Below are positions 5,677 to 55,270 of a DNA stretch of 55,270 nucleotides, piece after piece. The notes beneath the pieces were generated by a model, which saw only the letters and a list, made by a program, of their open reading frames with translations, was not told where the DNA came from and did no database searches. This DNA comes from Candidatus Omnitrophota bacterium. GTDB lineage: Bacteria > Omnitrophota > Gorgyraeia > 1-14-0-20-64-10. The position numbers were made by a program, and so were the translations under genes. The DNA is taken from positions 1-55,270 of the forward strand of contig JACPXR010000035.1 in the NCBI GenBank assembly GCA_016196465.1, read 5' to 3'. Each line of letters begins with the position of its first letter. Within the stretch, counting starts at the first letter, position 1.

Positions 5677-6476
5677 TGGAATTACCCCTTTTAACCCGGG
5701 GGCTCGTCTTTCTCTCGGGGCTCGTGGTCGGCTCCTTTTTGAACGTCTGCATCTGGCGCCTGCCCGCCGGGGAGCAGGTGATCCGGGGCCGTTCCCATTG
5801 CCGGGGGTGCGGGCATCTGATCGCCTGGTACGACAATCTGCCCCTGTTGAGCTTTTTGATTTTGAAGGGAAGGTGCCGCTTCTGCCGGGCGAGGATCTCT
5901 TGGGTTTACCCGGCGGTGGAGTTGGCCACGGGAGCGCTCTTTCTCCTGGTCTTTCAGCGGTTCGGCCTGACCGCTGCGGGGCTGACTTACGCGGCCCTGG
6001 GGGCGGCTCTCATCCTCATCTCCGCCATCGACGCCCGGTGCATGGAGATTCCGGATGAGGTGACTTATCCGGGAATGCAGCTGGGGGTGATCTTGAGCTT
6101 CTTCACTCCCGAGCTCCACGGGGCCTCCAGCCGCTGGGGCGGACTGATCTCCAGTCTGCTCGGGGCCCTCGCCGGGGCCGGGTTTCTCTGGGTGATCGGG
6201 ACCGTCGGCTCTTGGGTCTTCAAGCGGGAGGCGATGGGCGGGGGGGACGTGAAGCTCATGGCGATGGTGGGATCCCTCCTCGGGGCGGGTAAGACCCTTC
6301 TCGTGAATCTCGGGTTTGCCCCCGTCCTCGGTTCGATCGTGGGGCTCGTGTTGAAATACCGCTACGGGAAGGAGCTGATCCCCTACGGGCCGTTTTTGGC
6401 CGCGGGGACGTTGATGGCGGTCTTCTGGGGGGATGGGATCCTCCAGTGGTACCGGAAGATCCTCTTGGGGATCTAG
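5676..6476 (+). CDS. prepilin (type IV leader) peptidase / N-methyltransferase, A24 family
   Basis: Polytopic membrane protein. Two CxxC pairs (HCRGCGH, GRCRFCRA), AIDARCMEIPDE and GGGDVKLMA aspartate motifs. Start overlaps the leuA stop (TGATG). Confidence 0.88.
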   Translation: MELPLLTRGLVFLSGLVVGSFLNVCIWRLPAGEQVIRGRSHCRGCGHLIAWYDNLPLLSFLILKGRCRFCRARISWVYPAVELATGALFLLVFQRFGLTAAGLTYAALGAALILISAIDARCMEIPDEVTYPGMQLGVILSFFTPELHGASSRWGGLISSLLGALAGAGFLWVIGTVGSWVFKREAMGGGDVKLMAMVGSLLGAGKTLLVNLGFAPVLGSIVGLVLKYRYGKELIPYGPFLAAGTLMAVFWGDGILQWYRKILLGI

Positions 6477-6488
6477 GAGAAAGGGAAA

Positions 6489-7616
6489 ATGCTCAGATAT
6501 CTGACGGCAGGGGAATCGCACGGGCTCTGTCTGACGGCGATCCTGGAAGGGGTCCCTTCGGGACTCAAGCTCGAGCCGGGGTCGGTGGATCGGGAGCTGA
6601 AGCGCCGCCAGCTGGGGTATGGGCGGGGGGCCCGGATGACCTCCATCGAGGTCGACCGGGTCGAGATCCTATCGGGCCTGCGCTTCGGAAGGACGATCGG
6701 TTCTCCGATCACCCTCCGGATTCCCAACAGGGACCAGTCGATCGAAAAGCTTCCCCCGGTGACGCGGCCCCGGCCGGGCCACGCCGACTTAGGGGGCGCC
6801 CTGAAGTACAACACCCTGGACGCCCGGAACATTCTTGAGCGGGCCTCGGCCCGGGAGACCGCCGCCCGAGTGGCGGTGGGGGCGGTCGCCAAGCGGCTCC
6901 TTTCGGAGTTTGGGGTCGAGTGTTTCAGCCACGTCGTCCGGTTGGGGGGAGTGGACGCGAAGCCGCAGGCCCTTTCCTTTCAGCGGATCCGGTCGCGGGC
7001 GGAGGTCTCTCCGCTGCGCTGCGCCGACGCACGGGCGGAGGAGCGAATGATCCGCGCCATCGACCGGGCCAAGCGGGCGGGCGACACGGTCGGGGGGACG
7101 GTGGAGGTGGTGGCCCTCAACGTGCCGCCGGGCCTGGGTTCCCACGTCCATTACGACCGGAAGCTGGACGGACGGATCGCCGGAGCCCTCATGTCCATTC
7201 AGGCGATCAAGGCAGTGGAGATCGGGGAGGGGGTGAACGTTTCGAACCTCTTCGGCTCTCAGCTTCACGATCAGATTTACTACTCAAAGGGAAAGGGATT
7301 TTACCGGAAGACCCACCGGGCCGGCGGGCTGGAAGGGGGCATCACAATCGGCGGTCCCCTCATCGCCCGGATCCACATGAAGCCCCTCTCCACCTTGCGC
7401 AAGCCGATGATGAGCGTGGACCTGGAAACGAAAAAACCGTTTCAGGCGACGGTGGAACGCTCCGACGTCAGCGCCGTGCCGGCCGCCGGAGTGGTGGCCG
7501 AGGGGGTCCTCGCCTTCGAGCTGGCCAACGCCTTTCTCGAGAAGTTCGGCGGCGACTCCCTGGGGGAGCTCAAGCGCAACGTCCAGGGGTACCTGCGGCA
7601 GGTGGAAAGATTCTAA
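6489..7616 (+). CDS. aroC: chorismate synthase
   Basis: MLRYLTAGESHG N-terminus, GRSSARETA-like ERASARETAARVA, LMSIQAIKAVEIG. 375 aa. Confidence 0.95.
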   Translation: MLRYLTAGESHGLCLTAILEGVPSGLKLEPGSVDRELKRRQLGYGRGARMTSIEVDRVEILSGLRFGRTIGSPITLRIPNRDQSIEKLPPVTRPRPGHADLGGALKYNTLDARNILERASARETAARVAVGAVAKRLLSEFGVECFSHVVRLGGVDAKPQALSFQRIRSRAEVSPLRCADARAEERMIRAIDRAKRAGDTVGGTVEVVALNVPPGLGSHVHYDRKLDGRIAGALMSIQAIKAVEIGEGVNVSNLFGSQLHDQIYYSKGKGFYRKTHRAGGLEGGITIGGPLIARIHMKPLSTLRKPMMSVDLETKKPFQATVERSDVSAVPAAGVVAEGVLAFELANAFLEKFGGDSLGELKRNVQGYLRQVERF

Positions 7617-8117
7617 ATGAACAATGTCGTTTTGGTTGGATTCATGGGAACGGGAAAATCAGCCGCCGGGAAACTCCTCGCCAAACGGCTGAAGAGGCCC
7701 TTTGTCGATCTGGACGATCGGATTGCCAGGGAGGCGGGAAAGCCGATCCGTGAGATTTTTGCCGCCGAGGGAGAGAACGGCTTCCGGGCCCGGGAATCCA
7801 AGGCGGTTGAATGGGCCTCAGGCCTTCGCGCTCACGTCATCGCCACCGGAGGGGGCGTCATGCTGGATGATTCCAACGTTCGGCGTCTCAAGGCCTCAGG
7901 CAAGCTCGTGTGTCTGACCGCCCGCTCGGAGGTGATCCTCAAAAGGGCCCTTCATACCCTGCCTTCGAGGCCCCTGTTGAACGGTCCCTATCCGAAGGAG
8001 AAAGTGGAGGAGCTCCTCTCCCTTCGGGCCCCTTCCTACGCGAAGGCGGATGGGACGGTGGACACCTCGGACCGGTCTCTGGAGGAAGTGGTCAAGGAGA
8101 TCTTGAAGTTTCTATGA
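7617..8117 (+). CDS. aroK: shikimate kinase
   Basis: P-loop GFMGTGKSAAGKLLA followed by FVDLDD. 166 aa. Starts immediately after the aroC stop. Confidence 0.92.
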   Translation: MNNVVLVGFMGTGKSAAGKLLAKRLKRPFVDLDDRIAREAGKPIREIFAAEGENGFRARESKAVEWASGLRAHVIATGGGVMLDDSNVRRLKASGKLVCLTARSEVILKRALHTLPSRPLLNGPYPKEKVEELLSLRAPSYAKADGTVDTSDRSLEEVVKEILKFL

Positions 8118-22626: not shown

Positions 22627-22655
22627 TTGAAATCAAAAGGGTATCCAGGTAAACT
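22627..22655 (+). promoter_or_regulatory. possible sigma70-like promoter for the 22684 gene (TTGAAA-N17-TAAACT)
   Basis: Hexamers at 22627-22632 and 22650-22655 lie in the only clearly AT-rich tract of this part of the window. Confidence 0.3.
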
Positions 22656-22683
22656 TTTACTACAAGCTACCCTGAAGAGCCCG

Positions 22684-24672
22684 ATGAGGTTAACCCAAGC
22701 GCTCACTCGAACGATAGGGATTTTCCTGTCGCTGGCCATCGCTTCGCCCGGCCCTGCCTACGGATTGCGCCAAGCCGGCCTCGAGGAGAATCCCAAGAGC
22801 CGCGGGGAGCTGAAAAGGGCCTTGACGATTCGCTCAGGATTGGAGGAGAAGGTGGTGGAAGTGAGAAACCTCGCTTTCGGCCAAGAGGTCACGGATGGGT
22901 TCGGGCATTCCGGGCCTGCCGGATTGAAGGTTAATATCCAGGGCAAGACCGTTGAGTTCGGATCGAGGGGTGTCGCCGAGATTCTCTTTCCCGGCAAGCC
23001 CGGCCGGCGGATTTATCTGGCCACCCACCACCAGATCGCCTACTGGATTCTGGCCAGGGCCTATGACCTCAGGTTGATTCCCCTCCGAGCGATCCGGCTT
23101 TTGTTCACCGACTGGCATGCGGATGATGCCATTTCCTACGAGGAGCCGCCTCTGGCTCCTTTGAGTGCGGTGGAAAGGTTTATCGGCGCCGGCAGGACCA
23201 CGACCAGCGTCAATCGGCTGGGCGCGACCCACCGGGCGGTGTACGAGGAAGATTTTGTGGATGCCCTGCTCAAGGCGGGGCTCATCGCCTCCTACGATTG
23301 GTACGGCAACCCGCGGCTTCCTCTCATGACAAAGCAGGACACCCCACAACGCTCCATCTTGGATTCTGCGCAGATCCCCCTTGCGGCAACCAACCTCGGC
23401 AGCATTGATCTGGACGTCGCCGGAGAGGATCTGGAGCATCTGCCGGAACTTTTCCCTCATCTTCTCAACCTCGCCAGAAAAAGCGAGATCAACATGATCT
23501 TCACGAGCCCCGGCTACGTGAAGGACCAGACCAAAGCGAAGTTGTTTGCCGCGGCGCTGGCCAACACGCTCATCGAGGTCAAGCGCTTGGAAGAGGAGGG
23601 GGAGATTGAGCGGCATCTCTCAGGCCGAAAGAGGGTCGAGCTAGTCCAGGCGGAAGGAACCGATCCAAAGGAGTTTGTCGATGAGCTGAACCGCCTCGGC
23701 AACGAAGCGCTGAGGTTTGTCTTATCTCAGATGGCGTTGGAGAAGGTTCTTGCGCCGATGAGACAGAGGCGGCCACGGCTCATCTTCGCTGATCTCGATC
23801 GGACCTCCTCGCCGGATGCCGATGCGCCTGCTGATCCCGAGGTACTGGCGGAAGTTCAAGCGCTTGCCCGAGAGGTCCCCGAGGCAAGGATCGTTCTTTT
23901 GACCGACCGGATGCCGGAGATTGTCCAGGAGCGCTTCGGGCGCTTCATCCCAGCCGATCTCACAGAGCGGGTCTTGGTGGCGCCGGTGGTTGGCGCTCAG
24001 GGGATGGGCTGGGTGGTTCCGCCGGAAGTGGAAGCGGTGATCGACGGCGTGATGGAGGAGGCGAGGCGGCGCGGGATTCGACCCGGGGATCCCGCTCAAG
24101 GGACTGGGAGCGGCAAGGTGCTTTTGCAGATGGACGGCAAAACCTACGGGATTGATGTCGAGTTCAATCTGGGGGAGATTCAAGCAGCCGATTTGGCGCA
24201 GAGCCGGGACAACCGATTGGAACTTGTCGCCTTGGCTCAGCGGAAGTTAGACCAAGCAGGGCTTTCCAGATTCCAAGTCTACTCAGGGGATGCCCGATCC
24301 ATCTCCATCTTTCCCCCCAAGGACGAGGGGGTCCGCTTCTGGCAGAGACGGTTTGGGGCGGCTGATGGCGAGGTCGCCTTCATCGATGACAACGGAAGCA
24401 GGCTCAGCTCCGCCCACTCAGGGCTCGTCGGAGTGGCCTCCCGCGGCGGGCTCTCAATCTGCTGCGGCACGCGCCCCGGCGATTACGAAGAACTGCCGAC
24501 CGACCTTGGAATCGTCATGACAAAAGGGCTCGCCACAGGCCCCAAAGTCGCCGCCATGGCCCTCCGGATGATCCGACAGGCCCACCGCGCCGTCGGCCTG
24601 GAGGAGGGGGAGAAGGCAGAGGCGGTGGGTGTGGGGGTCATCCAGGACCGGGAGGTGGAGAGGTGGCTTTAG
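22684..24672 (+). CDS. secreted GLEE-motif protein A: signal peptide, double-GLEE leader, His/Asp-rich N-terminal module, HAD-like phosphatase module, GLEE + 21-aa tail
   Basis: ATG 22684 gives MRLTQALTRTIGIFLSLAIASPGPAYG (signal peptide). GLEE codons at 22774-22788, 22834-22848 and 24592-24606. HAD motif I FADLDRT and motif IV-like FIDDNGS. The TTG 22627 start in the track adds a non-hydrophobic extension. Confidence 0.75.
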   Translation: MRLTQALTRTIGIFLSLAIASPGPAYGLRQAGLEENPKSRGELKRALTIRSGLEEKVVEVRNLAFGQEVTDGFGHSGPAGLKVNIQGKTVEFGSRGVAEILFPGKPGRRIYLATHHQIAYWILARAYDLRLIPLRAIRLLFTDWHADDAISYEEPPLAPLSAVERFIGAGRTTTSVNRLGATHRAVYEEDFVDALLKAGLIASYDWYGNPRLPLMTKQDTPQRSILDSAQIPLAATNLGSIDLDVAGEDLEHLPELFPHLLNLARKSEINMIFTSPGYVKDQTKAKLFAAALANTLIEVKRLEEEGEIERHLSGRKRVELVQAEGTDPKEFVDELNRLGNEALRFVLSQMALEKVLAPMRQRRPRLIFADLDRTSSPDADAPADPEVLAEVQALAREVPEARIVLLTDRMPEIVQERFGRFIPADLTERVLVAPVVGAQGMGWVVPPEVEAVIDGVMEEARRRGIRPGDPAQGTGSGKVLLQMDGKTYGIDVEFNLGEIQAADLAQSRDNRLELVALAQRKLDQAGLSRFQVYSGDARSISIFPPKDEGVRFWQRRFGAADGEVAFIDDNGSRLSSAHSGLVGVASRGGLSICCGTRPGDYEELPTDLGIVMTKGLATGPKVAAMALRMIRQAHRAVGLEEGEKAEAVGVGVIQDREVERWL

Positions 24673-24712: not shown

Positions 24713-24738
24713 TATGTAGCTACATATGTAGCTACATA
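24713..24738. promoter_or_regulatory. perfect 26-bp palindrome (two abutting ATGTAGCTACAT units), probable TA operator overlapping a TATATT -10-like box
   Basis: TATGTAGCTACATATGTAGCTACATA equals its own reverse complement. It lies 16 nt upstream of the antitoxin ATG. TATATT at 24705-24710. Confidence 0.6.
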
Positions 24739-24753: not shown

Positions 24754-25032
24754 ATGGTTCAATTTGTGAATGTTCGCAAGCTGAAGAACCAACTTTCCGA
24801 GGCGATCCGTTGGACGCGCAAGGGGGACGTGGTGGTCACCCGGCGCGGCAAGCCCCAGGCGGTGCTGCATCGGGTGAGCGAAGAAAATCTGGAAGATTAT
24901 CTTCTCGCGCACTCCGCCAAGTTCCAGAAGAGTCTGGAGGCCTCTTATCGGCAGTATCAACGCAAGGGCGGCATGGCCCTCGATTCTTTGATTGTCCAAG
25001 CCGAGCGAGAGCTTGCCCGTCTTCGCCGTTGA
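24754..25032 (+). CDS. Phd/YefM-family type II antitoxin
   Basis: ATG 24754 after GAGGAGGGGG. MVQFVNVRKLKNQLSEAIRWTRKGDVVVTRRGKPQAVL is a typical Phd/YefM N-terminus. Overlaps the downstream toxin gene. Confidence 0.8.
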   Translation: MVQFVNVRKLKNQLSEAIRWTRKGDVVVTRRGKPQAVLHRVSEENLEDYLLAHSAKFQKSLEASYRQYQRKGGMALDSLIVQAERELARLRR

Positions 25033-25279
25033 ATTTTCACCGGCGGCGCAGCGGGATCTCAGACGATTGGATCCCGCGATTCGGTTGCAGTTGCTTCGGG
25101 CAGCCGCAGTTCTGGGGCAAGGCCCCTTTCCATCGGCAGGGAGCAGGATTCAGCCCATGGTCGGGATCGTCCCGCGGCATTTCCGGCTGCGGATTGGAGA
25201 GTATCGATTGATCTACCGGGTTGAAGGAGAGAAGGTTGTCGTGGTCCGCGTGGCCCACCGCCGGGAGGCCTACCGATGA
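25013..25279 (+). CDS. RelE/ParE-family type II toxin
   Basis: ...FAVEFSPAAQRDLRRLD...FRLRIGEYRLIYRVEGEKVVVVRVAHRREAYR is a RelE/ParE signature. TTG 25013 is preferred (purine-rich upstream); TTG 24992 is an alternative. Confidence 0.78.
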   Translation: MPVFAVEFSPAAQRDLRRLDPAIRLQLLRAAAVLGQGPFPSAGSRIQPMVGIVPRHFRLRIGEYRLIYRVEGEKVVVVRVAHRREAYR

Positions 25280-29925: not shown

Positions 29926-32900
29926 TTGAAAAGAACTCGTCTCTGCTCATCTCTGCTTATCTTGGCCCTTGCTTTAAGCGGCACTCCCTCTGCCTTTGCC
30001 TTGCGCCCTCATGCCGACACCGCCGGCCTCGAGGAGAAACTCGCCCCCGCTCGCCCTTCGACAGGCTCAGGGCGAGATTCCCGCACCGGACTGGAGGAGC
30101 TTCCCTTCTGGCCGGGGGCGGCCGAGGTGGAGCCCTGGGGAGGCCCCGGCTTCATGCCGGTCCTCTTTACGAATGGAGAAGGCACCTTTGAGGTATCCGC
30201 CCATCTGTGGGATCTTCCTGTTCCGGCAGAACTGACCGCGGAGGAGAAGCGGACGGTCTACGGTCCCTGGATTTCTGACTCTCCAGAGAACCAGCGCGTT
30301 GGAGACCGTCCATTGAAGGATGCCCCCCCTCAAGTTCGCCTTGACATCGAGAAGCTTCTTCGCAGAGAGGTGGCTCAAACCCTTCACGCCCGCTACCGGC
30401 TACCCGGGGGAAACGGCGCCCTTGGAAAGGAGATGCAGGTGAAGATGGCTCTTCACAGCGTTCGCGTCTACATGCCCGGCGGGAATATCCGTTCCGGCCA
30501 GCCGAAGATGGAAGTCCTCTACAAGGCGGAAATCTCCGCCAGGGATCCTGTGGATTCCGCTTTTACGGTCCAGATCGCTTCGCCTGGCGGGAGGCAGTTT
30601 CGTCTGGGGCACAAGGGATGGATCCGGATCCAGCGGTGGAAGAGGGAGCTGAAGATGAAGCAGGCGATCCAGCCGGACGGGAAGGTGGTCCACGTGGTCC
30701 AGGTCCCCTCTTCGAGGGATGGATGGGTCCAGCGCAGGCCCCATGAGGATACCGGAACGGTGATTGAGCGGTTGGTCCATGAGGCCGCGGACCGGGCCCA
30801 GCCGGGCCAGAGGACCGTTCTGGCGGCGGACGTGGGCAGGGGGGCCGGGGCGACGGAAGGGAACGCCGACATTGTCGATCCGGAGGAAGTCTTGGATCTT
30901 TTGCCTGCCGAAGGAGGCAGCCGGGGGATCGACTGGATACACCTCTCTGAGCAAGGGATTTGGGCGGGTGTGCGCGGCCACCGGAGGGCTGAAATCGTCT
31001 TTGAAGGGACCCAAGAAAACGCCGAGGCCCTTATTCAAAACGCCAAACAGTTCCTGGAGGAGTTCCGGGGAGATTTTCCTCACTACAACGCTTGGATCGT
31101 TGTCCGGGAGGAGGGGACGGTACGCTTGGTGATCGTCCCGCGCAATTTCGGATGGTCGGACCAGGTGCTGTACATGGTTGATCTTGAATTTGACCGGCGC
31201 CGGTATCGCTTGGTGACCCGCGAGGAGGCAGACCGCTTCGGATGGCTCCATCTGGCTCCCGCGGGGAGCAGCGATTTTGTCATTCCGCCGGGCCGGCCGG
31301 TTCTCCCTTTTGCCGTGGACGCCCTCGCCCTGTACGGTTTTGTTCAAGCGCGCGATCCGGCGCATTACAACGACTGGTATTTGAAGCCCAGAATCGACAA
31401 GGGGCTTGAGCTGGCCGGCCTTCCCCGAAGCGATTCGAGGATTCAAGCCATGCTGAAGTGGATGAGGGATCATTCCGGGAAAGATCCCAAGAGGCAGGCG
31501 AGACGGGAGATCCTCAAGGCGTTCAATCTCCTCCGGAATGCCGATACCCCGGATGATCTTATTCGGCTGATCAAGGCAATCCAGGCGATGCGGCCCCGGC
31601 ATGAGGAGGCGTTTAAAGGCCTTCCCCCCCGGCTGCGGGACCGGTTTACCAGAGAACTCTGGAAGAAGATAGCGGAGTTTTCGAGGAGCCATCCCCAGCG
31701 GGTTCGGATTGAGATTTCCGCCTTGGGGGCTCCGGTGAAGCGTCACCAGAACGGAGAGCTCCCGGTGGTGGTGGGGGTCGGAGCCCCTGTCCTGGATTTG
31801 ATCGAGACGGTCGAGCAGGATACCCTCGTCGTCCGCCCCAAAGCGGGGGGCTCCCCCTTCCACATCGTTCAGACGGTCAGCGCTTTGAATGAGGTTCCCG
31901 TGGAATTGGTGGCGATGTTGGGCGGTGAGACGGGGAGACTGGTTTTTCAGGCGCTCGACGCCCAGGGGATACCGGTGACCCGGGTGGAAGGCCCTCCCCA
32001 ATGGGAGAACCGGGCGAGCGACATGGTGCCTCGTCCCGCCGCCTTGGGGTATCAAGGAGAGATCCGGCTGGTGGGCACCGGCTCTGACCCGTCGCTTGGG
32101 ATCCAGGATGTCCGGAGGATCTGGAAGGCGGTGCGGGAGAGGTTGGCTGGCAAAAAGGGCGTCGTCATCTACGGCGAGCGGATTGCGGGAAGTCGCAATC
32201 AGCAAAGGGCGGTCGCTGAGACGGTCAAGGAGGAGATGGAAAAGACGCTTCAAGAGGGACACCGGATCTGCGTTTCGTACAACGCCTCCTGGTCCGGAGA
32301 GATTGCGCGGATTCTGCTGGGTTCCGGCGCCTGGGGCGTTTTCCTGGATCTGGGGGCCCTCGCCAGCGCGGCCGGAAGTTTCGTGGAGGACCGAGAATTT
32401 CTGAGGCATATGCCCCCTTTTGTTCAGGAGAATCCGGAGCTTCTTACCGACCCCAATTTCCTTCGGGAGTATCAGGAGGAAGCGGCGCTCTTGGCCCACG
32501 CGATCCGCCTGAAACAGGACGTGAAATGGGGGCTCGTTTCTTTGGGCGCGCCCGGCTTGGTGCTGGTGCCGGGTGATGAATGGCGGCAGGGACGGCCCTC
32601 CGTCCTTCTGGGGTTTTCTTACTACCGAAGCGGCGCGGCGGATGGCGCTTTTGGGGGACTGCTGGAGGTGATGCTTCGGGAGCCGGGTCCTTCCAGCGCT
32701 CCGGCGCTTCAGGCGCTCGAGACGGCGACCACCTCTGCCGGAATTTACTCCAAGCGTCCCCCGGCCCTGCGGGGAGTCCCACCGACCGCCGATGAGATCC
32801 GGCAGGCCCCTCTTCCTGACGTGCGGGTCATTTTGCCGCCGCTCTCCGTCCGGGAGGAGGCCTATGCAAGTGAGGAGGCGAGGTTGGATTTGGAAGAAGC

Positions 32901-33339
32901 CGGCGGCCCTCCCCATCGGTTTTTTCAGGAGATTTTCAGGCATCTTGCCTCTTTTCCAGGCAACAACGATTCCGAGGGGCGGCTCGCTCCCTGGTGGAGG
33001 GCTTTAGGCCAGATGCGGTTGGGAGAGATCTTTGAGAACAGAGTGGGAAGTGCCGGAGGTCGCCTGATGCTTCTGCGGGCCCTTGCCGAGTTGCCCCAGC
33101 CTCCCGGTGGATCACTCCCTGCCCAAGAGGGAGAGGATCTTTCTGCTCGGCGCCTGCACCATCAGCAATGGAGGGAATCTCCCCAGGGCGTCTATTGGTT
33201 GATGACACGGTTGGTCCATCAATTTGAAGATCCGCTTCGGAGAGAGATTCGCTTCCTGACCGGGCTGGAGGGGAGGGGGGCAATGGTTGAGTGGGAGGAT
33301 TGGATCCGAAACGCGGGGAAACTGGAGAGAAATCTCTAA
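29926..33339 (+). CDS. secreted GLEE-motif protein B: signal peptide, double-GLEE leader, unknown N-terminal modules, PfkB/ribokinase-like module, GLEG + 21-aa tail
   Basis: TTG 29926 lies 6 nt after AGAGGAA and gives MKRTRLCSSLLILALALSGTPSAFA (signal peptide). GLEE at 30022-30036 and 30085-30099; GLEG at 33259-33273. PfkB-like KAGGSPFHIVQTVSAL...SGAADGAFGGLLE. Confidence 0.75.
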   Translation: MKRTRLCSSLLILALALSGTPSAFALRPHADTAGLEEKLAPARPSTGSGRDSRTGLEELPFWPGAAEVEPWGGPGFMPVLFTNGEGTFEVSAHLWDLPVPAELTAEEKRTVYGPWISDSPENQRVGDRPLKDAPPQVRLDIEKLLRREVAQTLHARYRLPGGNGALGKEMQVKMALHSVRVYMPGGNIRSGQPKMEVLYKAEISARDPVDSAFTVQIASPGGRQFRLGHKGWIRIQRWKRELKMKQAIQPDGKVVHVVQVPSSRDGWVQRRPHEDTGTVIERLVHEAADRAQPGQRTVLAADVGRGAGATEGNADIVDPEEVLDLLPAEGGSRGIDWIHLSEQGIWAGVRGHRRAEIVFEGTQENAEALIQNAKQFLEEFRGDFPHYNAWIVVREEGTVRLVIVPRNFGWSDQVLYMVDLEFDRRRYRLVTREEADRFGWLHLAPAGSSDFVIPPGRPVLPFAVDALALYGFVQARDPAHYNDWYLKPRIDKGLELAGLPRSDSRIQAMLKWMRDHSGKDPKRQARREILKAFNLLRNADTPDDLIRLIKAIQAMRPRHEEAFKGLPPRLRDRFTRELWKKIAEFSRSHPQRVRIEISALGAPVKRHQNGELPVVVGVGAPVLDLIETVEQDTLVVRPKAGGSPFHIVQTVSALNEVPVELVAMLGGETGRLVFQALDAQGIPVTRVEGPPQWENRASDMVPRPAALGYQGEIRLVGTGSDPSLGIQDVRRIWKAVRERLAGKKGVVIYGERIAGSRNQQRAVAETVKEEMEKTLQEGHRICVSYNASWSGEIARILLGSGAWGVFLDLGALASAAGSFVEDREFLRHMPPFVQENPELLTDPNFLREYQEEAALLAHAIRLKQDVKWGLVSLGAPGLVLVPGDEWRQGRPSVLLGFSYYRSGAADGAFGGLLEVMLREPGPSSAPALQALETATTSAGIYSKRPPALRGVPPTADEIRQAPLPDVRVILPPLSVREEAYASEEARLDLEEAGGPPHRFFQEIFRHLASFPGNNDSEGRLAPWWRALGQMRLGEIFENRVGSAGGRLMLLRALAELPQPPGGSLPAQEGEDLSARRLHHQQWRESPQGVYWLMTRLVHQFEDPLRREIRFLTGLEGRGAMVEWEDWIRNAGKLERNL

Positions 33340-34268
33340 AGGCCCCGGCGGTCCACCACCCAGCGGTTGCCCCCCTGCAGCTTGGCCCACTCCTTCAGCT
33401 CCGCCCCGATCTGGGCCACTTCGGCGACGTGCTTGATCTTGCGCTGGGTGTTGGTGACGACGGAGATGGAGATCGTCGTGGTTGGAAAGCGCTTGACCTG
33501 GCCGTCCCGGTCGTGGCCCACGATGAAACCCCGCTTCCGGTCGGCCTCGTCGTAGAGCCGGGGGGCGGCCTCAGCGAATTCGCTCACAATCCGCCGGCAG
33601 ATCCCTTCCACCGCCCTTGGGACGGTCAGCATCACGAAATCGTCCCCGCCGATGTGCCCCAGGAAATCCTCAGGGGTTCCCAGCTCCCGCATCGCCAAGA
33701 GGAGGATCCTCGCCGTCGATTTAAGCATTTCGTCCCCCCGTTCAAAGCCGTACGTGTCGTTGAAGGCCTTGAACTTGTCGAGGTCGATGTAGCAGGAAGC
33801 GAGGGGTTTACCCGAGTCGAGGCGGCCTTGAAGCTCCTCCAGGATGGAGACGTTGCCGGGGAGTTTGGTGAGGGGGTTGGCATCCAGCGCCCGGAGGGTC
33901 CGCCGAAGGATCATCCGGACGCGGGCGACGAGCTCCGTTGGCTCGAAGGGCTTGACCACGTAGTCATCGGCGCCGGCGTCGATCCCCTGGACCTTGTCCA
34001 TCACCTCTCCCTTGGAAGTGAGCATGATGATCGGCAGGTGCTGAAGGAGGATGTCCTTCTTGAGGACCTGAGCGACCTGGAGGCCGTTCATCCGGGGCAT
34101 CATGAAGTCGAGGAGGATCAGGTTCGGCGTCGACCGCCGGACGTAGGCGAGGGCCTCTTCGCCGTTGACCGCCTCCTGGATCTCGTAGCCCTCCGGCTCC
34201 AGGGTGAGGCGCAGGACGTCCCGGATGTCCGCTTCATCGTCGACAATGAGGATCCGCTCCCTGCTCAT
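33336..34268 (-). CDS. response regulator receiver + GGDEF-type domain (GGDDF variant)
   Basis: ILIVDDEADIRDVL receiver. DLDKFKAFNDTYGFERGD and HIGGDDFVML in the GGDEF fold. 310 aa. Confidence 0.85.
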   Translation of the reverse strand: MSRERILIVDDEADIRDVLRLTLEPEGYEIQEAVNGEEALAYVRRSTPNLILLDFMMPRMNGLQVAQVLKKDILLQHLPIIMLTSKGEVMDKVQGIDAGADDYVVKPFEPTELVARVRMILRRTLRALDANPLTKLPGNVSILEELQGRLDSGKPLASCYIDLDKFKAFNDTYGFERGDEMLKSTARILLLAMRELGTPEDFLGHIGGDDFVMLTVPRAVEGICRRIVSEFAEAAPRLYDEADRKRGFIVGHDRDGQVKRFPTTTISISVVTNTQRKIKHVAEVAQIGAELKEWAKLQGGNRWVVDRRGL

Positions 34269-49184: not shown

Positions 49185-49239
49185 TTGACAAATAGCAGCA
49201 GGGTGTGCCATAATTGTACTAGATGTATGAAACGTACAA
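49185..49239 (+). promoter_or_regulatory. sigma70-like promoter (TTGACA-N18-CATAAT) with overlapping inverted repeat TTGTAC-N14-GTACAA, likely the TA operator
   Basis: TTGACA at 49185-49190 and CATAAT at 49209-49214. Inverted-repeat arms at 49214-49219 and 49234-49239, just upstream of the antitoxin SD GGGAGG (49242-49247). Confidence 0.6.
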
Positions 49240-49252
49240 ATGGGAGGTGCGT

Positions 49253-49495
49253 ATGCGAATTTCTGCCAGTCGGGTCCGTGAAAACTTCTCGGACACCCTG
49301 AATCGGGTCGCCTATCGGAAAGAACGGATTGTGCTTCGCCGCAGAGGAAAGGACTTAGCGGCGGTCGTCCCCATCGAGGATCTCACTCTTCTTGAGGAGA
49401 TGGAGGACCGGATAGATCTCGAGGCTGCCCGGAAAGCACTGAAAGAGAAGGGAACGATTTCTTGGAACAAGCTGAAGGCTAAGCTCGGACTGTAG
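49253..49495 (+). CDS. Phd/YefM-family type II antitoxin
   Basis: ATG 49253 lies 5 nt after GGGAGG. MRISASRVRENFSDTLNRVAYRKERIVLRRRGKDLAAVVPIEDL is a typical N-terminus. Confidence 0.8.
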   Translation: MRISASRVRENFSDTLNRVAYRKERIVLRRRGKDLAAVVPIEDLTLLEEMEDRIDLEAARKALKEKGTISWNKLKAKLGL

Positions 49496-49501
49496 TTCCA
49501 G

Positions 49502-49765
49502 GTGCGATACACCCTCGAATTTAAACCTTCAGCCGCGCGCGAATTCTCTAAGCTTCCCAGACCCGTTCAGGTGAGCATCAGGCCTCGGATTGACGCCTTA
49601 GTAGATAACCCCCGTCCCCATGGTGTAGAGAAGGTTGCCGGCGGGGAGGACCTCTTTCGTATCCGAGCAGGAGATTATCGGGTTGTTTACCAGGTCCAGG
49701 ACGACCGACTCTTTATCTTGGTCGTTCGAGTCGGCCATCGCCGAGAAGTTTACCGAGGCCTCTAA
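49502..49765 (+). CDS. RelE/ParE-family type II toxin
   Basis: GTG start. RYTLEFKPSAAREFSKLP...FRIRAGDYRVVYQVQDDRLFILVVRVGHRREVY. 87 aa. Confidence 0.82.
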   Translation: MRYTLEFKPSAAREFSKLPRPVQVSIRPRIDALVDNPRPHGVEKVAGGEDLFRIRAGDYRVVYQVQDDRLFILVVRVGHRREVYRGL

Positions 49766-49904: not shown

Positions 49905-52900
49905 ATGAAACGCCTCAGCTTAACTCTCCCATTGGCGGCGATCTGTCTCCTGGCCGCCCTCACTGCACCCGCGACCAGCCACGCCGCAGGAGGGCGTAGT
50001 GGTGCCGCTTCCGCTAGCGGCAGCCACGCCCTGCGGCAGGAGGCCCCCGGCCGCGACGACAACCGCCCCCTGAACGACGAGCTCCGCACCGGCCTGGAGG
50101 AGCGCGTAAACTCGGTACCGGGTACCGTGAGGACAGGTTCCGCCGGGCTGGAGGAATGGCCCGGTTTCCTGGACCCGGTGGATTTCGGGAGGATCATCGC
50201 ATGGTTGAGTGAGCAGCTCTCCGAGGGACCTCTTCGAGATCCAGAAGACCGGATCACTTTGCCGGAGATCATCCGTCATATCCAAACGAGTTCGGCGTCC
50301 GGCCAGAATTTGGGCCCGTTCGGTCAGGTGTCTGGGGAGAAAGTGGCCTTCTTTGTCCAGAAACTGCCGTTTCTCATCACGGGCCAGCCGGATCCTCCAC
50401 CGGATGCGCTTCCCCACGGATATGAGCTGAAGCGTTTCTTCAATTTCTTCCTGGAGGTTGCCGTTTCTGTGCTTGAGCTAAACGAGGCAGGCACGATTCG
50501 CGCGGCGATGACATCGCGAGAAATGGCCGACCAGGTGCTGCACCGATTTTTCTCCACAACTTTATCTGATCGTCCCCCGACGCTGGGCACTTCGGAATTC
50601 AATCTTCAGATGGCGGATCTTTTCATGACAGCCGACGAACAACGGATGGCCACTTATCGCGCTTTGGAGTTTTTGCATTTCTCCGCCGGGCTGGAGGAAG
50701 TCGAGAATGTCATCGACGAGATCACGGGAAGAATCCAAGGACTTTTAAGGGGTTGGATTCCCCGGACAAGTCTTGATTGGTCGGAGAAAGAGCAAGAAGC
50801 CTTGCTCCCTCGCCTCCGTATTGTTCTCGACGCCGGAGACCTTCGAAACGAGGTCGGCCTCGTGGTCCGATGGTTCGATGGGATCGTTGGAACCAGGGCG
50901 CTGGTCGAGGCCTGGGAGGATTCCCAGCGGGCGGACGTGCTCCTGAACGCAGTGGTTTTTTATATGGGAGGTACCTCCCAATCCACGAAGGGCGACATTC
51001 GAGCCGTCAACGAACGCTTGCTGAACGGCTCACTGTCCCTGCCGTTTCTTCAGGAGGTATTCCGCTTGAATCCGGCGCTCTATGGGAGACTCCTGTTTCA
51101 CATCGGCTTGAGCTCGGGCAGGTTTGACAGTTCGAACATGCAATCGAACATTCGAAGAATTCTCGAGGGTTCTTCAGGAGAGTTGGAGCGATCGGCGCTT
51201 CTTTCTGCCTATGACGCGCATCAGGCCTCGCTGATTCCGGACTATTCTGCTCTTCAGCTGGATGAATTAGAAAGGGTACTCGCGTCGCAGCTTCCGGATC
51301 GGATCCAGCGGCTGATTTCCGCCATGGAGGGAAGTTCTCTGCCCGGCGTCGATTTTTGGAAGCAACGGATTGACGTTGCACCGTGGCAGTCGCCGGAGAA
51401 TCTCGAAAAGACGCTTCGCTGGGTCGAAGAGCAAGACTTCTTTTTGCTCGAACGCGTCGACGCCCAATGGAGGCTGTTCGAGCGATATGGAATAGAAGGT
51501 CCCCCGGTCAACAAATATCTGGAAGAGTGGGCGGATCGAGAGGGGATAGGACGGCTGGGAAGGATAGGTCTTCCTGCCACGATCGCGGCGGTTCAGTTGT
51601 TGCTGCAAGAATCCAGGGACACCCCTTCCACGTTGGAGCGAATGGAACAAATTCTGGAGCGGTTAGGCTTGTTTGCTCCGAATGGCTTAAGCCGCAGCGA
51701 GGGGATTCCTGGAGAAAATCCTTACGGGGATATCCTTTTTCTCGCTCAGTTACCAGAAGATCTCACCGCCGCATCCTCCTCAAGGACGATTTTCTTGGAC
51801 AGATGGCGTCAAGCGAAAATGGAGTTTTACCGAGATAACGGATTGGAGGTCATCCCGCCCTTTGTCCCCTTCCATCGCACCGCCGGGCTGGAGGAGCGGA
51901 AACTTCCCGGTGATTTTTCCTACGAGGCGGTCGAGATCACCCCCTACTCTCCCGCAGGCCGGCAGTTTGGGAATCGATTGGAGGAATTTCGAGGCAGATT
52001 TTTCAGGAACCGACAGACGCAACATCTGTATGTACTGGACACTCCAAGTATCTCCCTGCTGTCTCTATGGCCTACCAAGAACGATCCAGCCAGACAGTAT
52101 CTGGGGTTCCGGCTAGCCCGGGTGCTGCGGGCCAATGTGCCGGACGTTGTCTTTCCTTCGAAGTCGGAACGGAAAGTCTTCTCGGATTATCTGGGGCTTC
52201 CCTCCGGGAGTGAGATTTACCTAGAGAGAGTGACAACCGATTACAAGTTAAAGGACGAGGAAGTTCTGCAAAAGGATTCCAGGAGAGCATTCACGTGCAG
52301 TCTCGTTGTAGCGATTTTTATGCGCAAGTTCGATTTTCACGATCACAATCTGGGTCCCTTAGGAGATTCAGACATTCCCATGATGTTTGATCACGATGAA
52401 GCGTTCCAGTCCGAATATGTGAATATGGAAGACTTCACCATTGCCTTTGTCCGGAACCATTTCCCTCGCGATTCGGTGAACGCAGGCTGGATCAATCCCA
52501 ACCGGCTGTTGGAGCGGATCGACCGGGAGGAGCTCTCCCGCTCCGCGGAGGCGGTTGAGGCGCTTGATCTCTCCGGTTTCTTCGAGCAGCTAAATCGGGA
52601 TCTTCCGGAAGATCTGGATTTAGATGCAAGAATCGTTCCCCTGATCGAATATCTGAAACTTCGGCAGAGGTCCATCCGGCAAGATCTGATCAGTTTTTTC
52701 GGCTGGCTGGCTTCTCCCGATGGGAAAATGCGGATCCAGTATGGGGACAAAAACTGGACGGAAATCGGTTATTCTCGGCCTCCTCGCCTCACATTCAGAC
52801 AGATCCGCTCTGCCCTCGCCCGCGCCGGGCTGGAGGAGGCGGTGCAGTTTGTGCAGCCCGGGGAGGTTCAAGGTTTTGAGAAACCAGTCTTCAATCAGTG

Positions 52901-55270
52901 GGGAGGTAAAGATCATCAGCAATTCACCACCCTGGCCTTGCTGAATTATCTTAAGCTTGATCCATCCACGGTTGTTTTCAACGTAGCCTATGGAGATCAT
53001 CCATTGACGCTTCCAGAGCCCTGGCAGGAACCGGTCAATGTAGATCCGGATCCGTTTGCACCGCCCACTAACCCTTTGAGAGCCAAGTATCTCGTTGATA
53101 CTGTGGAAGGAGCCGTTGACAAAGGACATTCTGCCGGCGTAGTTTTGCTGTACCGACCAGGGGTGATGCCTTTTTGGAACGATCAATTCTTCCAAAAAAC
53201 GTGGGCGTTGGTTCAGCCGGGAGGATGGCTCTTCTTGATTCAGCCATTCCCATTGCGGATGATTAACAGAAGGTTAGTTGACTTTTATTCGGCCTTTCAT
53301 CAATCCATCCAGCCCAGGAGCCCCTTGGAGGTCATTGCTGTGAGTCCTGACGGCTCGCTGGATCAGGCCCTGGCGCTTCTTCTCCAGAAACCAAAATCTC
53401 CCACCACGCAGATTCCGCTTGCTCCAATTGCCACCCCCCGCGCCGGGCTGGAGGAGCCACCCAGCGATGCTGAGGTGGAGCGAGTGATCCAGTGGGCATT
53501 TGGACAAGCTCGACTGGTTGATCATTGGTTGGCTATCGGGACAATCGGCCAATGGCATGGATCGGACCAGTTTAGCGAATCTCTTGCGAAGTGGCAGAAA
53601 CCTTTCATGGCGGCTCTGTTATCGAACTTATCGGCTGCTGATGATGATTCTCTGGAAGAAAGCCAGAGGGCGCGGGTGGCATTGAAACAGTTGGCTTTTC
53701 GGGGAATTACTCCCGAGATCTTGGGATTGCCCGAGATCAGCGACCGACAACTGCGAGCCAGACTGGTACCGGGTACCGCAGGGCCAGGTACCACCTCCGC
53801 TCGGCCCGTCGGCCTGGAGGAGCGGGATCGCGAAATTCAGAGGGCCTACCAGGTTCTCCTTGCGCCGGCCGAGGATTTGAATGAGCGGTTGAAACGGTTG
53901 AGGATTGCTTTGGAGGGCTTGGATGGCGGCCAGCGGCTGAAATTCTTTCGGGAACTCCTCTGGATCATGGGCCGAAGGGAAATCCCGGAGGTCGTGGGCG
54001 CTGTTCTGAAGGGACAAGGGGAAGATTCCTCCCTTTTGAGAGAGAGATTGTTCGAGGCCATGAGAATAGATTCTGAGCGCGCAATTCTTCCGGTTCTTGA
54101 AGGAGCCCTTTCAAGACTTCATCCTCGTGAGGTTGCAACGATTTCTCTGGTTTTCATTCCCGCGGCCGCCGTCCTCCTGTCGGCAGATACCTCCGAACGC
54201 CTCCAGGATCTATTCGAGCTTTCGATCCTCAGGGCCTCTCTTCATGTTTTTGAGGAGAGAACGGAATCGGGTCAGCAGCATGCCGTACCCTATCTGAGGC
54301 TAAGCCACATTTGTGAAGTGAAGACGCGGCAGTATTCCGCCCAAGCCCTGGAACTCACCGGCACCAGCCATCCCCATCCTATGGCCTTGTACGCGGCAGG
54401 CCTTTCCATGGTCTACAGTGCCTTGGCCTCTGTTTACGCGGGGATCGATTTCGAGATGATGAATCGAGGTGAAAGGATGCTTTTTCCAATCTCAGAAAAA
54501 GTTTCAGCAAAGATCGATGCGATGAGGGCGAATATCCAAGGCGAGATCAGCACAATGACAGGTACCCTCTTCGGGCACTTGGATTTACTGCTTGCCTCTT
54601 ATCGCGGTGACGACATTCTTTCTTTGCAGCTCCTCATGTTCCGGGTTGAACTGGATCGAGCTTGTGCCACCTACTTCCGGCTCAACGGCTCAGAGGATGC
54701 GGTTGGGTACTGGCAGGATGCCCGCCGAACAGAAGAGCAAATCCAACAGATCGTTCTCAAACATGAACGTTCCCTCGGCCTGTCGGTTTCCGAAGCAGGT
54801 CTTGAGGCGGAACCGTCCAAACTGGTACCGGGTACCCAGGGGACAGGTTCCGCCGCCGCCCCGCGCGCCGGGGCGGAGGAGCCGCTTTTTCTGACGGAGA
54901 TAAACCTCCAGACGCTTGCTGGCAGGAGCGAGTTGACATCTTTCTACCGGTGGCCGAATCAGATGAGACTCTTGGAGGAGATGATTCTGCCCGATCTCTT
55001 CCAGCGTAAACCGAGCGGGGAGGTTCTCATCGTAAATCTGGCAAGTGCCATGGGAGAGGAGACTACCACAACGGCAGCCGTGGTTCTTCGAGCGAGAGAC
55101 CAATTCGTCTCAAAAGGAGACCCAACCTCGCTGAAGGTCCGCGTTGTTGGCGTGGAGATCGATCCAGAGATTCACGAGAAAGCCCGCCGCCGGCTGGCTG
55201 GTAAAGAGGGACTCTGGTTTCTCCCCTGGGGACAACCCATCGACAGAACACGACGTGCGAAAGCGCTGTT
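49905..55270 (+). CDS. secreted GLEE-motif giant protein C (3' end outside the window; at least 1788 codons): signal peptide, double-GLEE leader, at least 7 modules including kinase-like, Rossmann-methyltransferase-like and CheR-like
   Basis: Read codon by codon on every sequence line: no stop from ATG 49905 to the window end. In-frame TAG upstream at 49821-49823. N-terminus MKRLSLTLPLAAICLLAALTAPATSHA (signal peptide). Not in the supplied ORF track. No other frame has an ORF longer than about 190 aa here. Confidence 0.85.
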   Translation, partial: MKRLSLTLPLAAICLLAALTAPATSHAAGGRSGAASASGSHALRQEAPGRDDNRPLNDELRTGLEERVNSVPGTVRTGSAGLEEWPGFLDPVDFGRIIAWLSEQLSEGPLRDPEDRITLPEIIRHIQTSSASGQNLGPFGQVSGEKVAFFVQKLPFLITGQPDPPPDALPHGYELKRFFNFFLEVAVSVLELNEAGTIRAAMTSREMADQVLHRFFSTTLSDRPPTLGTSEFNLQMADLFMTADEQRMATYRALEFLHFSAGLEEVENVIDEITGRIQGLLRGWIPRTSLDWSEKEQEALLPRLRIVLDAGDLRNEVGLVVRWFDGIVGTRALVEAWEDSQRADVLLNAVVFYMGGTSQSTKGDIRAVNERLLNGSLSLPFLQEVFRLNPALYGRLLFHIGLSSGRFDSSNMQSNIRRILEGSSGELERSALLSAYDAHQASLIPDYSALQLDELERVLASQLPDRIQRLISAMEGSSLPGVDFWKQRIDVAPWQSPENLEKTLRWVEEQDFFLLERVDAQWRLFERYGIEGPPVNKYLEEWADREGIGRLGRIGLPATIAAVQLLLQESRDTPSTLERMEQILERLGLFAPNGLSRSEGIPGENPYGDILFLAQLPEDLTAASSSRTIFLDRWRQAKMEFYRDNGLEVIPPFVPFHRTAGLEERKLPGDFSYEAVEITPYSPAGRQFGNRLEEFRGRFFRNRQTQHLYVLDTPSISLLSLWPTKNDPARQYLGFRLARVLRANVPDVVFPSKSERKVFSDYLGLPSGSEIYLERVTTDYKLKDEEVLQKDSRRAFTCSLVVAIFMRKFDFHDHNLGPLGDSDIPMMFDHDEAFQSEYVNMEDFTIAFVRNHFPRDSVNAGWINPNRLLERIDREELSRSAEAVEALDLSGFFEQLNRDLPEDLDLDARIVPLIEYLKLRQRSIRQDLISFFGWLASPDGKMRIQYGDKNWTEIGYSRPPRLTFRQIRSALARAGLEEAVQFVQPGEVQGFEKPVFNQWGGKDHQQFTTLALLNYLKLDPSTVVFNVAYGDHPLTLPEPWQEPVNVDPDPFAPPTNPLRAKYLVDTVEGAVDKGHSAGVVLLYRPGVMPFWNDQFFQKTWALVQPGGWLFLIQPFPLRMINRRLVDFYSAFHQSIQPRSPLEVIAVSPDGSLDQALALLLQKPKSPTTQIPLAPIATPRAGLEEPPSDAEVERVIQWAFGQARLVDHWLAIGTIGQWHGSDQFSESLAKWQKPFMAALLSNLSAADDDSLEESQRARVALKQLAFRGITPEILGLPEISDRQLRARLVPGTAGPGTTSARPVGLEERDREIQRAYQVLLAPAEDLNERLKRLRIALEGLDGGQRLKFFRELLWIMGRREIPEVVGAVLKGQGEDSSLLRERLFEAMRIDSERAILPVLEGALSRLHPREVATISLVFIPAAAVLLSADTSERLQDLFELSILRASLHVFEERTESGQQHAVPYLRLSHICEVKTRQYSAQALELTGTSHPHPMALYAAGLSMVYSALASVYAGIDFEMMNRGERMLFPISEKVSAKIDAMRANIQGEISTMTGTLFGHLDLLLASYRGDDILSLQLLMFRVELDRACATYFRLNGSEDAVGYWQDARRTEEQIQQIVLKHERSLGLSVSEAGLEAEPSKLVPGTQGTGSAAAPRAGAEEPLFLTEINLQTLAGRSELTSFYRWPNQMRLLEEMILPDLFQRKPSGEVLIVNLASAMGEETTTTAAVVLRARDQFVSKGDPTSLKVRVVGVEIDPEIHEKARRRLAGKEGLWFLPWGQPIDRTRRAKAL
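50114..50156 (+). repeat. linker repeat copy 1: GGTACCGGGTACC-N4-GGACAGGTTCCGCC-GGGCTGGAGGA (encodes VPGTVRTGSAGLEE)
   Basis: Shares the 13-mer and the 14-mer exactly with the copy at 54824. Confidence 0.8.
53765..53822 (+). repeat. linker repeat copy 2: GGTACCGGGTACC...GGCCAGGTACC...GGCCTGGAGGAG (encodes VPGTAGPGTTSARPVGLEE)
   Basis: Same 13-mer as the other two copies, then a diverged middle section that ends in the GLEE codons. Confidence 0.75.
54824..54881 (+). repeat. linker repeat copy 3: GGTACCGGGTACC-N4-GGACAGGTTCCGCC...GGGGCGGAGGAG (encodes VPGTQGTGSAAAPRAGAEE)
   Basis: Same 13-mer and 14-mer as copy 1. The motif is degenerate here (GAEE). Confidence 0.8.

Follow-up and report, generated by a model that had tools for sequence, protein, structure and literature searches.

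What does it mean that two large proteins encoded on one bacterial contig both end in the tetrapeptide GLE(E/G) followed by 21 residues? The question is raised by JACPXR010000035.1, a contig of a Candidatus Omnitrophica metagenome-assembled genome (MAG), which was analysed in its entire length of 55,270 nucleotides (nt), hereafter the window. It encodes three GLEE-containing proteins, termed A, B and C, of which C runs past the contig end. Omnitrophota are nanobacteria that are abundant and uncultivated and that probably depend on hosts or live as predators. A preliminary description had taken the ends of A and B for a removable pro-peptide or recognition tag of fixed length. The tail observation is real, but over-specified, and the broader result lies outside the tails, in a signature of leader and GLEE that marks a modular class of Omnitrophota proteins. 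Proteins A, B and C are members of one family of exported multi-module proteins of this phylum, found in no Pfam or NCBIfam entry and in none of the literature searched. That the family is defined by a common leader, and by GLEE at the starts of its modules, can be stated with high confidence. In A and B, the 21-residue tails exemplify the terminal element that follows the last copy of this punctuation motif. The reading favoured here is that GLEE is punctuation read by a common factor and that the tails are the piece beyond its last copy, a reading to which we give about even credence.

A leader and a motif that define the family

The N-termini of A, B and C are alike, each with a Sec-type signal peptide, (A/G)LR(Q/P), and two copies of [AST]GLEE set 13-16 residues apart. 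An alignment of 33 such leaders on ALR gives a regular order of elements, beginning with an h-region of the form LxLxLxL and continuing with L-P-(N/A/S)-(P/S)-A-(L/F), A-L-R-(Q/P), 0-8 residues, [AST]GLEE, a short stretch, and [AST]GLEE again. On inspection, the 33 leaders have the features of Sec-type signal peptides, namely a start rich in K/R, the LxLxLxL core, and a c-region P-x-P/S-A-(L/F)-A before LR. The stretch between the two motifs is amphipathic, about 11-20 residues long (~16), and often of the form x-L-x-x-x-L. Similarity to A, B and C is confined to the leader, and beyond it none is detectable among family members, save for a few whole modules.

The family was gathered through degenerate DNA patterns for the double motif, together with one exhaustive HMMER search. 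The first DNA pattern picks up the 3 leaders of the window and nothing in 100 shuffles. A scan of species-representative genomes with the double-motif pattern gave mostly chance matches, many of which belong to a conserved sequence of helicase type (TGLEEGLFPH...AGLEEERRL; the label is not tool-based), and these were set aside. Among the matches listed, at least 8 open reading frames (ORFs) carry the same leader, 2 from the Omnitrophota MAG JACOVG01 (L045 and L087) and 6 from MAGs labelled Planctomycetia. Refining the pattern to include A-L-R brought in about 25 further leader proteins from metagenomes. The leader set thus assembled holds at least 33 unique proteins with 20,762 residues, and 19 of the proteins have their stop codon inside the locus. 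C-termini were compared in 36 proteins, comprising the complete locus proteins and the homologues of B described below. A hidden Markov model (HMM) of the motif alone, evaluated by leaving out one protein at a time, yields 5-8 bits per site, too weak for a search of 1.8 billion proteins, and a leader HMM from the 3 window leaders is also too weak, with a best foreign score of 27 bits. Word-indexed homologue searches with A and B returned the queries themselves as sole matches, annotated 'Candidatus Omnitrophica bacterium', and an alignment of motif windows used in the same kind of search scored nothing. A phage origin of the leader family is unsupported, since a viral contig collection scanned with the refined pattern gave 0 matches. 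Neither Pfam nor NCBIfam has an entry for the leader or the motif, and literature searched for AGLEE, 'GLEE motif', and Omnitrophota together with polyprotein yielded nothing relevant, so that both the protein class and its motif are apparently undescribed in these sources.

The motif is abundant and exact. GLEE occurs 106 times in the 33 family proteins, against 1.4 copies expected from composition, and all remaining GLEx tetrapeptides together account for just 7 occurrences in the same residues; a single one of these is GLEG, that of protein B, which is about the chance level. In the window, a six-frame scan finds 13 in-frame copies of GLE[EG], with 3 in A, 3 in B and 7 in C, and no other convincing coding frame has any. 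At the 40 copies beyond the leader, the residue at position -1 is A, S, T or V. The sequence upstream of these internal copies is often rich in Pro, Ala and Ser (..PPGA|GLEE, ..YPPAA|GLEE, ..LPPAS|GLEE), and at others it is an amphipathic, helix-like stretch. Most modules begin with [AST]GLEE, often behind such a Pro/Ala-rich linker, and a protein may hold from one to many modules, with total sizes of 250 to 2,400 residues.

The modules themselves are diverse. Pfam matches in 26 family proteins include GH3, mannitol dehydrogenase, GNAT, metallophosphoesterase, UDP-glucose dehydrogenase and SLT, and many modules resemble cytoplasmic enzymes (PfkB, SHMT, GDH, GNAT and others). In L140, the GxGxxG of a mannitol dehydrogenase lies 13 residues past a GLEE, and the module thus starts as a free-standing protein would. 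Segments bounded by GLEE can be homologous over their whole length: segment 1 of L137 (288 residues) aligns end to end with segment 2 of L140 (295 residues), and segments 1 and 2 of L163, neighbouring GLEE-to-GLEE units, are duplicates. As judged from these alignments, such whole-length homology suggests module shuffling at the motif.

An odd feature of some members is a twin-arginine (Tat) type signal behind the Sec leader. Signals of the form RRxFL with a hydrophobic stretch stand 4-5 residues past the second leader GLEE in L028 (GH3; 2-1474, minus strand) and L087 (SLT; 1318-4746, plus strand), and looser cases are seen in L007 (7159-7998, plus strand) and midway through the protein of L163 (1,548 residues; 2947-7674, minus strand).

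Terminal copies, tails and a conserved C-terminal domain

An exhaustive phmmer search with B gave 19 remote homologues at E<=0.001, of which 17 are related modular proteins of 690-2,400 residues; the two that are named are annotated Candidatus Omnitrophica. The PfkB domain is matched in 12/17, and their further modules include SHMT, enzymes dependent on pyridoxal phosphate, alpha-amylase, Glu/Leu dehydrogenase, GNAT, alpha/beta hydrolase and methyltransferase. A leader of the same kind, with ALR within the first 40 residues, is present in 11/17, and the leader block of their alignment reads [AS]G[LMTQ]EE. Ahead of the conserved module, 12 of the 13 aligned homologues have AG[LQAT]EE at the junction. 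This G-x-E-E is kept at the junction while the modules diverge to about 25-35% identity.

Ten of these homologues have in common a C-terminal domain of about 165 residues, most members of which end in Ala. It has no match in Pfam, NCBIfam or the PDB sequences. AlphaFold2, given the alignment, models it as a Rossmann-like alpha/beta fold with a predicted local distance difference test (pLDDT) of 93.4 and a predicted template modelling score (pTM) of 0.88, and Foldseek returns generic Rossmann-like matches alone (best E = 7e-3, TM about 0.4). The modelled domain of P0003 holds four copies of GLEE. The junction copy is coil before helix 1, AGLEEFL starts helix 45-51, LAGLEEAE forms the loop 96-99, and VGLEEL starts the last helix, 152-164. 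An L-G-(V/I/T)-P-x-E located 20 residues before the domain end starts helix 144-150. The last 20 residues are thus modelled as two short helices, 144-150 and 152-164, within the fold, and on this model the terminal element is predicted to be part of the folded domain and not a free appendage.

The same element connects the domain with members of the leader set. The domain is carried by L140 (E = 2e-19) and by L172 (1e-8), and in the alignment of its last 48 residues the GLEE of L140 sits exactly at the 'LG-x-P' position; the end of P0020 aligns likewise. When an HMM of these 48 residues is applied to the end of A, it scores 6.6 bits, a value that 0/200 shuffles reach, with AVGLEE aligned to the 'LG-x-P' position. 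The match is weak but consistent, and the end of A (helix, GLEE, 21 residues) may be the same kind of element as the end of the domain.

How general, then, are the tails? The sequence confirms the equal lengths for A, ending ERWL, and for B, ending ERNL; as a rule of the family, the 21 residues do not hold. The last GLE(E/G) lies 21 residues from the end in A and B (GLEG in the latter), 20 in L140, 24 in L137, 30 in L165 and 8 in L172, whereas the other 13 of the 19 complete locus proteins have their last GLEE 120-456 residues from the end or none beyond the leader. Among the homologues of B, the distance is 11 in P0003, P0005, P0014 and P0015, 12 in P0016, and 21 in P0020, a protein of another Omnitrophica MAG that ends ..GGNL. 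A terminal GLEE (GLEG in B) at 8-30 residues from the end is therefore seen in 12/36 C-termini, with modes at 11 and at 20-21. Under random placement, 1.2 of the 19 complete proteins would have GLEE within 30 residues of the end, while 6 have it (P = 0.0005), and without the proteins of the window the count is 4 of 17 independent complete proteins against 1.1 (P = 0.018). A terminal GLEE with a short tail is a recurrent trait of the family, its length not being fixed. The proposal that the tails are set off by the same motif as the N-terminal leader is in this way borne out.

The tails had also been interpreted as a removable pro-peptide or recognition tag of the fixed form GLE[EG]-x17-ER-x-L, serving secretion, encapsulation or the binding of a partner. 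Proteins A and B fit this form exactly, and P0020 with 21 residues and L140 with 20 come near in length. Against it, the tails of the family measure 8, 11, 12, 20, 21, 24 or 30 residues and 24/36 proteins have no tail. The ending ER-x-L is found in 0 of the 34 other C-termini, L045 and L087 included, and a collection of motif proteins ending GLE[EG]-x17-ERxL from the recovered family yields none besides A and B. The two tails are identical at 3/21 positions. For 3 matches within the last 4 residues, the estimated chance is ~1e-3 for that stretch, and a few percent if any stretch is allowed, so the shared ER-x-L is most likely a coincidence. The Sec-type signal peptide of every member opposes a cytoplasmic destination and makes encapsulation unlikely, as does the lack of a shell gene in the window; no shell protein family is found among its annotated genes or among 86 neighbouring genes of relatives. 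A fixed tag is largely refuted as a family rule, and we regard it as very improbable altogether. Proteolytic removal of the tails, taken by itself, is possible.

The equal length of the two tails is a separate matter, and turns on the GLEG of B. It could be a chance tetrapeptide, and the tails the unrelated ends of two proteins that happen to be equally long. Consistent with this, the single GLEG of the family set is near the chance expectation, the last ~60 residues of B, which hold it, lie outside every alignment to the homologues and leave the site unsupported by them, and 77/200 shuffles score as well as the end of B against the HMM of the domain's last 48 residues. By eye, the tail of B could be matched to segments inside P0007, P0008 and P0016, but this homology is not significant (best z = 3.8) and was rejected. 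On the other side, the chance of a GLEG at exactly the offset of A, estimated from the rate of GLEx, is about 3e-4 to 6e-4, and L140 and P0020 have their last copies at the same 20-21 residues. Because its offset is that of A, it has Thr at -1, as true sites often do, and its codons are one transition from those of GLEE (GAG), the GLEG of B is probably a variant or decayed GLEE site rather than a chance tetrapeptide. The equal tail length is probably more than chance, and coincidence as a full account appears quite improbable. The stop codon of B overlaps by 4 nt (33336-33339) that of a convergent response-regulator/GGDEF gene (33336-34268, minus strand), so that no remnant of a further module can lie downstream of B.

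What the motif may be for

The motif leaves a trace in the nucleotides as well as in the peptide. At the internal sites, Leu is encoded by CTG in 29/40, compared with 37% at other Leu-Glu pairs (P = 8e-5), and in the three codons that precede the Gly, a third-position C is about twice as frequent as expected from the amino acids encoded. The tetranucleotide YTCC, which can pair with GGAG, is still enriched over the 27 nt ahead of the site after codon resampling (21/40 versus 12.6, and 29/66 versus 15.7). The typical site has the form ..C ..C GCC GGS CTG GAG GAR, as at 50145, 51885, 52827 and 53445 of the window and in loci L005-L175, and contains the Shine-Dalgarno core GGAGG. The plus strand of the window has 10 copies of the DNA form GGS-CTS-GAG-GAR, and the minus strand has none.

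It may therefore be asked whether the conserved unit is the nucleic acid GCC-GGS-CTG-GAG-GAR, acting through Shine-Dalgarno-like pausing or as microhomology for recombination, with the peptide partly a by-product. The codon bias, the upstream enrichment and the restriction of all copies to the coding strand speak for such a signal. Yet the peptide is the more probable primary target of selection, because the reading frame is fixed, GAA is readily accepted as a Glu codon (8/40 and 14/40), and the homologues show G-x-E-E with other middle residues; variants with TTG, CTC, GGA and TCA also occur. Internal translation initiation behind the Shine-Dalgarno-like sites is ruled out, as in-frame start codons after the motif number 15 versus 18.9 expected, with no enrichment. 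A conserved RNA hairpin is ruled out for the 13 sites of the window, which show no consistent RNA structure. A nucleic-acid signal as the main explanation is thus improbable, although pausing or microhomology recombination is possible as a secondary layer.

The favoured reading is that GLEE would serve as a handle for one common trans-acting factor that acts after export. We infer a common reader from three properties of so exact a motif: its link with a signal peptide, its duplication at the mature N-terminus, and its persistence at the starts of non-homologous modules. The most likely candidate would be a processing protease or a sorting factor, and its role could be the endoproteolytic separation of modules or a step of sorting and hand-over. 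The tail would then be what is left past the last handle, in the form of a short helix or stub at the end of the protein, and a length of about 20-21 residues would reflect a structural element and not a measured tag. Processing or sorting is possible, though clearly short of an even chance, and a purely structural role is nearly as likely.

Several results weigh against a common reader. Protease domains are absent from the Pfam matches of the 26 family proteins and the 17 homologues of B; no protease, sortase-like or secretion gene adjoins A, B or C; and the 86 neighbouring genes of relatives, which are ordinary housekeeping genes, include no recurrent partner. The synonymous bias at the motif is not what a purely protein-level handle predicts. 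For the tails in particular, A and B lack the C-terminal domain by its full-length HMM, AlphaFold2 gives no usable model of A from its sequence alone (pLDDT 36), and the last 70 residues of B have no significant similarity to anything, just as its end fails to score against the shorter HMM. In the homologues, the last GLEE position of the domain (VGLEEL) is taken by NLEK, NVEK, DPDE, DPEE or DLEG, replacements that a helix N-cap position would be expected to tolerate. Some copies in the modelled domain appear plainly structural, and at least some would need no reader.

These last points lead to the alternative that GLEE is structure only, a favoured helix start or linker end that was spread by module shuffling, which nothing reads or cuts, and that the tails simply pack on the last domain. 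The confident model, in which copies start two helices and form one loop and the terminal 20 residues are helical, agrees with it, as do the cap-like replacements, the lack of a partner gene, and the movement of whole segments as units. It explains less easily why one exact tetrapeptide recurs across unrelated modules, where helix caps are not normally so uniform; nor would caps ordinarily be expected twice, right after the signal peptide, in each protein of a family, and the junctions keep G-x-E-E over deep divergence while the flanks vary. We consider the structural explanation possible, at distinctly less than even probability.

A stronger version of the processing idea would make [AST]GLEE the predicted cleavage points of exported multi-enzyme polyproteins of Omnitrophota, with a Sec-targeted precursor cut at every GLEE. 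The Tat-type signals past GLEE and the modules that start like free-standing proteins fit processing, or else a recent pasting of genes behind the leader. If the version were true, the products would be separate enzymes and small peptides, the latter being the ~16-residue leader piece between the motifs and tails of 8-30 residues, the Tat-type signals and native-looking N-termini behind GLEE would be explained, and the missing cleavage points of the large and giant modular proteins of the phylum would be supplied. We consider it doubtful.

Whichever holds, a strict motif at module starts provides a searchable hypothesis for where modular Omnitrophota proteins are read or cut, and the leader ALR-x-GLEE-x16-GLEE is a simple signature with which to gather this protein class from metagenomes. 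Less hangs on the tails by themselves; a last copy at 8-30 residues from the end bears on whether the motif can work without residues downstream of it. Were the motif purely structural or driven by nucleic acid, what is left would still be an unusually strict signature of module boundaries, along with a new Rossmann-like C-terminal domain.

The locus and its comparison with known systems

The features of the three window proteins, and the conserved domain of the homologues, are collected in Table 1.

Table 1. Positions of the GLEE proteins, their leaders, motif copies and tails in the window, and occurrence of the conserved C-terminal domain (residues of P0003).
Feature	Position	Strand	Description
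Protein A	22627..24672	+	681 codons from TTG; NCBI start is ATG 22684, giving 662 residues
A leader	22684..22848	+	Sec-type signal peptide (..LAIASPGPAYG), LRQ-AGLEE (22777-22788), 16 residues, SGLEE (22837-22848)
A terminal GLEE	24595..24606	+	Helix-like stretch ALRMIRQAHRAV just before; context HRAV-GLEE
A tail	24607..24672	+	21 codons 24607-24669 (GEKAEAVGVGVIQDREVERWL), stop 24670-24672; ends ERWL
Protein B	29926..33339	+	1137 residues; leader-bearing GLEE protein with PfkB-like kinase module
B leader	29926..30099	+	Signal peptide (..LSGTPSAFA), LRP-HADT-AGLEE (30025-30036), 17 residues, TGLEE (30088-30099)
B GLEG	33262..33273	+	GGG CTG GAG GGG; context FLT-GLEG; offset from end same as that of the site in A
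B tail	33274..33339	+	21 codons 33274-33336 (RGAMVEWEDWIRNAGKLERNL), stop 33337-33339; ends ERNL
Protein C	49905..55270	+	>1788 residues, cut by contig end; leader and five internal [AV]GLEE sites
C leader	49905..50156	+	Signal peptide, ALRQ, TGLEE (50091-50102), AGLEE (50145-50156)
C internal GLEE	50688..50699	+	HFSAGLEEVE
C internal GLEE	51885..51896	+	HRTAGLEERK
C internal GLEE	52827..52838	+	FRQIRSALARAGLEEAV; preceding helix-like stretch resembles that ahead of the terminal site of A
C internal GLEE	53445..53456	+	ATPRAGLEEPP
C internal GLEE	53811..53822	+	SARPVGLEERD
Conserved C-terminal domain	P0003 2258-2422; ends of P0005, P0009-P0015, P0017, P0019; L140, L172		..RTGRGVLVIP..AGLEEFL..VVVWG..LAGLEEAERVGVL..LG.P.EV.DQVGLEEL....A at the end

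Protein A has no match in Pfam or NCBIfam, and a HAD-type DxDxT motif (FADLDRT) can be read directly from its C-terminal half. The end of protein C (54900-55268) gives a weak match to a CheR-type S-adenosylmethionine methyltransferase (E = 4e-4, below the Pfam cutoff). CheR methylates Glu-Glu pairs, and the spacing of its known methylation consensus does not fit [AST]GLEE. The third-position GC of the genes for A, B and C is 0.73, 0.70 and 0.61, against 0.79-0.88 in the housekeeping genes of the contig, a difference that may reflect weaker codon adaptation, rapid evolution or a foreign origin.

The three genes are surrounded by genes for lipopolysaccharide synthesis, amino-acid metabolism, two-component systems and oxidoreductases, and the lipopolysaccharide genes mean that the organism is a diderm. 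A gene for a type IV prepilin peptidase (Peptidase A24) lies at 5676-6476; the site geometry of this enzyme does not fit the GLEE context. Two pairs of a Phd/YefM antitoxin and a ParE toxin adjoin the family genes, one directly downstream of A (24754-25279) and one directly upstream of C (49223-49765), and may mark variable or recently rearranged spots. Between the stop codon of A and the start region of the antitoxin gene (ribosome-binding site, ATG), at 24713-24736, a 12-mer stands twice in tandem (TATGTAGCTACA), each copy with the palindrome TGTAGCTACA; it is probably the operator of the toxin-antitoxin operon.

Judged by sequence features, the family is not a member of any known system with which it was compared. 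Defining features of LPXTG, PEP-CTERM, the type IX domain, encapsulation peptides, C39 leaders, prepilin signals and MARTX autoprocessing (its Peptidase_C80 domain) were looked for in the sequences and are missing. The nearest in logic are the sorting signals LPXTG/sortase, PEP-CTERM/exosortase and GlyGly-CTERM/rhombosortase, which share with it a short strict motif, a lineage-specific exported set and unrelated passengers. Those signals, however, consist of one C-terminal motif with a hydrophobic helix and a basic cluster, and are served by a dedicated enzyme gene, whereas GLEE is N-terminal, duplicated and repeated internally, and no partner enzyme was found. Neither tail (GEKAEAVGVGVIQDREVERWL, RGAMVEWEDWIRNAGKLERNL) has a PEP motif, hydrophobic span or basic cluster, there is no NCBIfam match, and LPXTG with its hydrophobic segment and basic tail is missing from both; the preliminary description was right to set them apart from such anchors.

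Other export and targeting systems differ in further ways. Type IX secretion has in common with the family an N-terminal Sec signal, variable passengers and, in the homologues of B, a conserved C-terminal domain. The type IX domain is a beta-sandwich of 80-100 residues, while that of the homologues is a Rossmann-like alpha/beta domain of ~165 residues that A and B lack, and neither A, B and C nor this domain gives a Pfam or NCBIfam match to TIGR04183/Por_Secre_tail. The lipoprotein export signal of Bacteroidota consists of acidic residues just past the lipidated Cys and could direct a sorting step after Sec. Both it and GLEE are short acidic motifs at a mature N-terminus, but the GLEE family has no lipobox Cys, belongs to another phylum and repeats its motif internally. 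Cargo of encapsulins and microcompartments has no signal peptide, unlike all GLEE members, which have one of Sec type. Double-glycine (C39) leaders have GG or GA and no Sec signal, in contrast to the single Gly followed by L-E-E, the Sec-type signal and the lack of a C39 match seen here. In type IV prepilins, G is followed by F/M-x-x-x-E and the motif precedes the hydrophobic segment, whereas in the GLEE leader the hydrophobic segment comes first and Glu stands at +2 and +3.

Also close in function are polyproteins and multi-effector proteins that are divided after synthesis. MARTX toxins, with their cysteine protease domain, and viral polyproteins resemble the family in their unrelated modules, in linkers with a recurring short site, and in the short peptides past the last site; they differ in that no protease domain such as Peptidase_C80 or C39 was found in any GLEE member, the motif sequences are unrelated, and cleavage is hypothetical here. 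In phylum and architecture the nearest come from Omnitrophota itself, where giant 'Dockerin-type' and 'Archaeovorin' proteins of >30,000 residues have been described, with metabolic-enzyme domains (HAD, kinases, methyltransferases) and signal peptides (West-Roberts et al. 2023, bioRxiv 10.1101/2023.11.21.568195). Their cleavage into several products has been proposed, with the cleavage points stated to be unknown, and the text of that study does not describe the GLEE motif or the ALR leader (West-Roberts et al. 2023, 10.1101/2023.11.21.568195). The GLEE proteins, at 250 to 2,400 residues and with no dockerin, C39 or S8 domain detected, differ from these giants in size and in such domains, and share with them the phylum and a similar assembly of enzyme domains.

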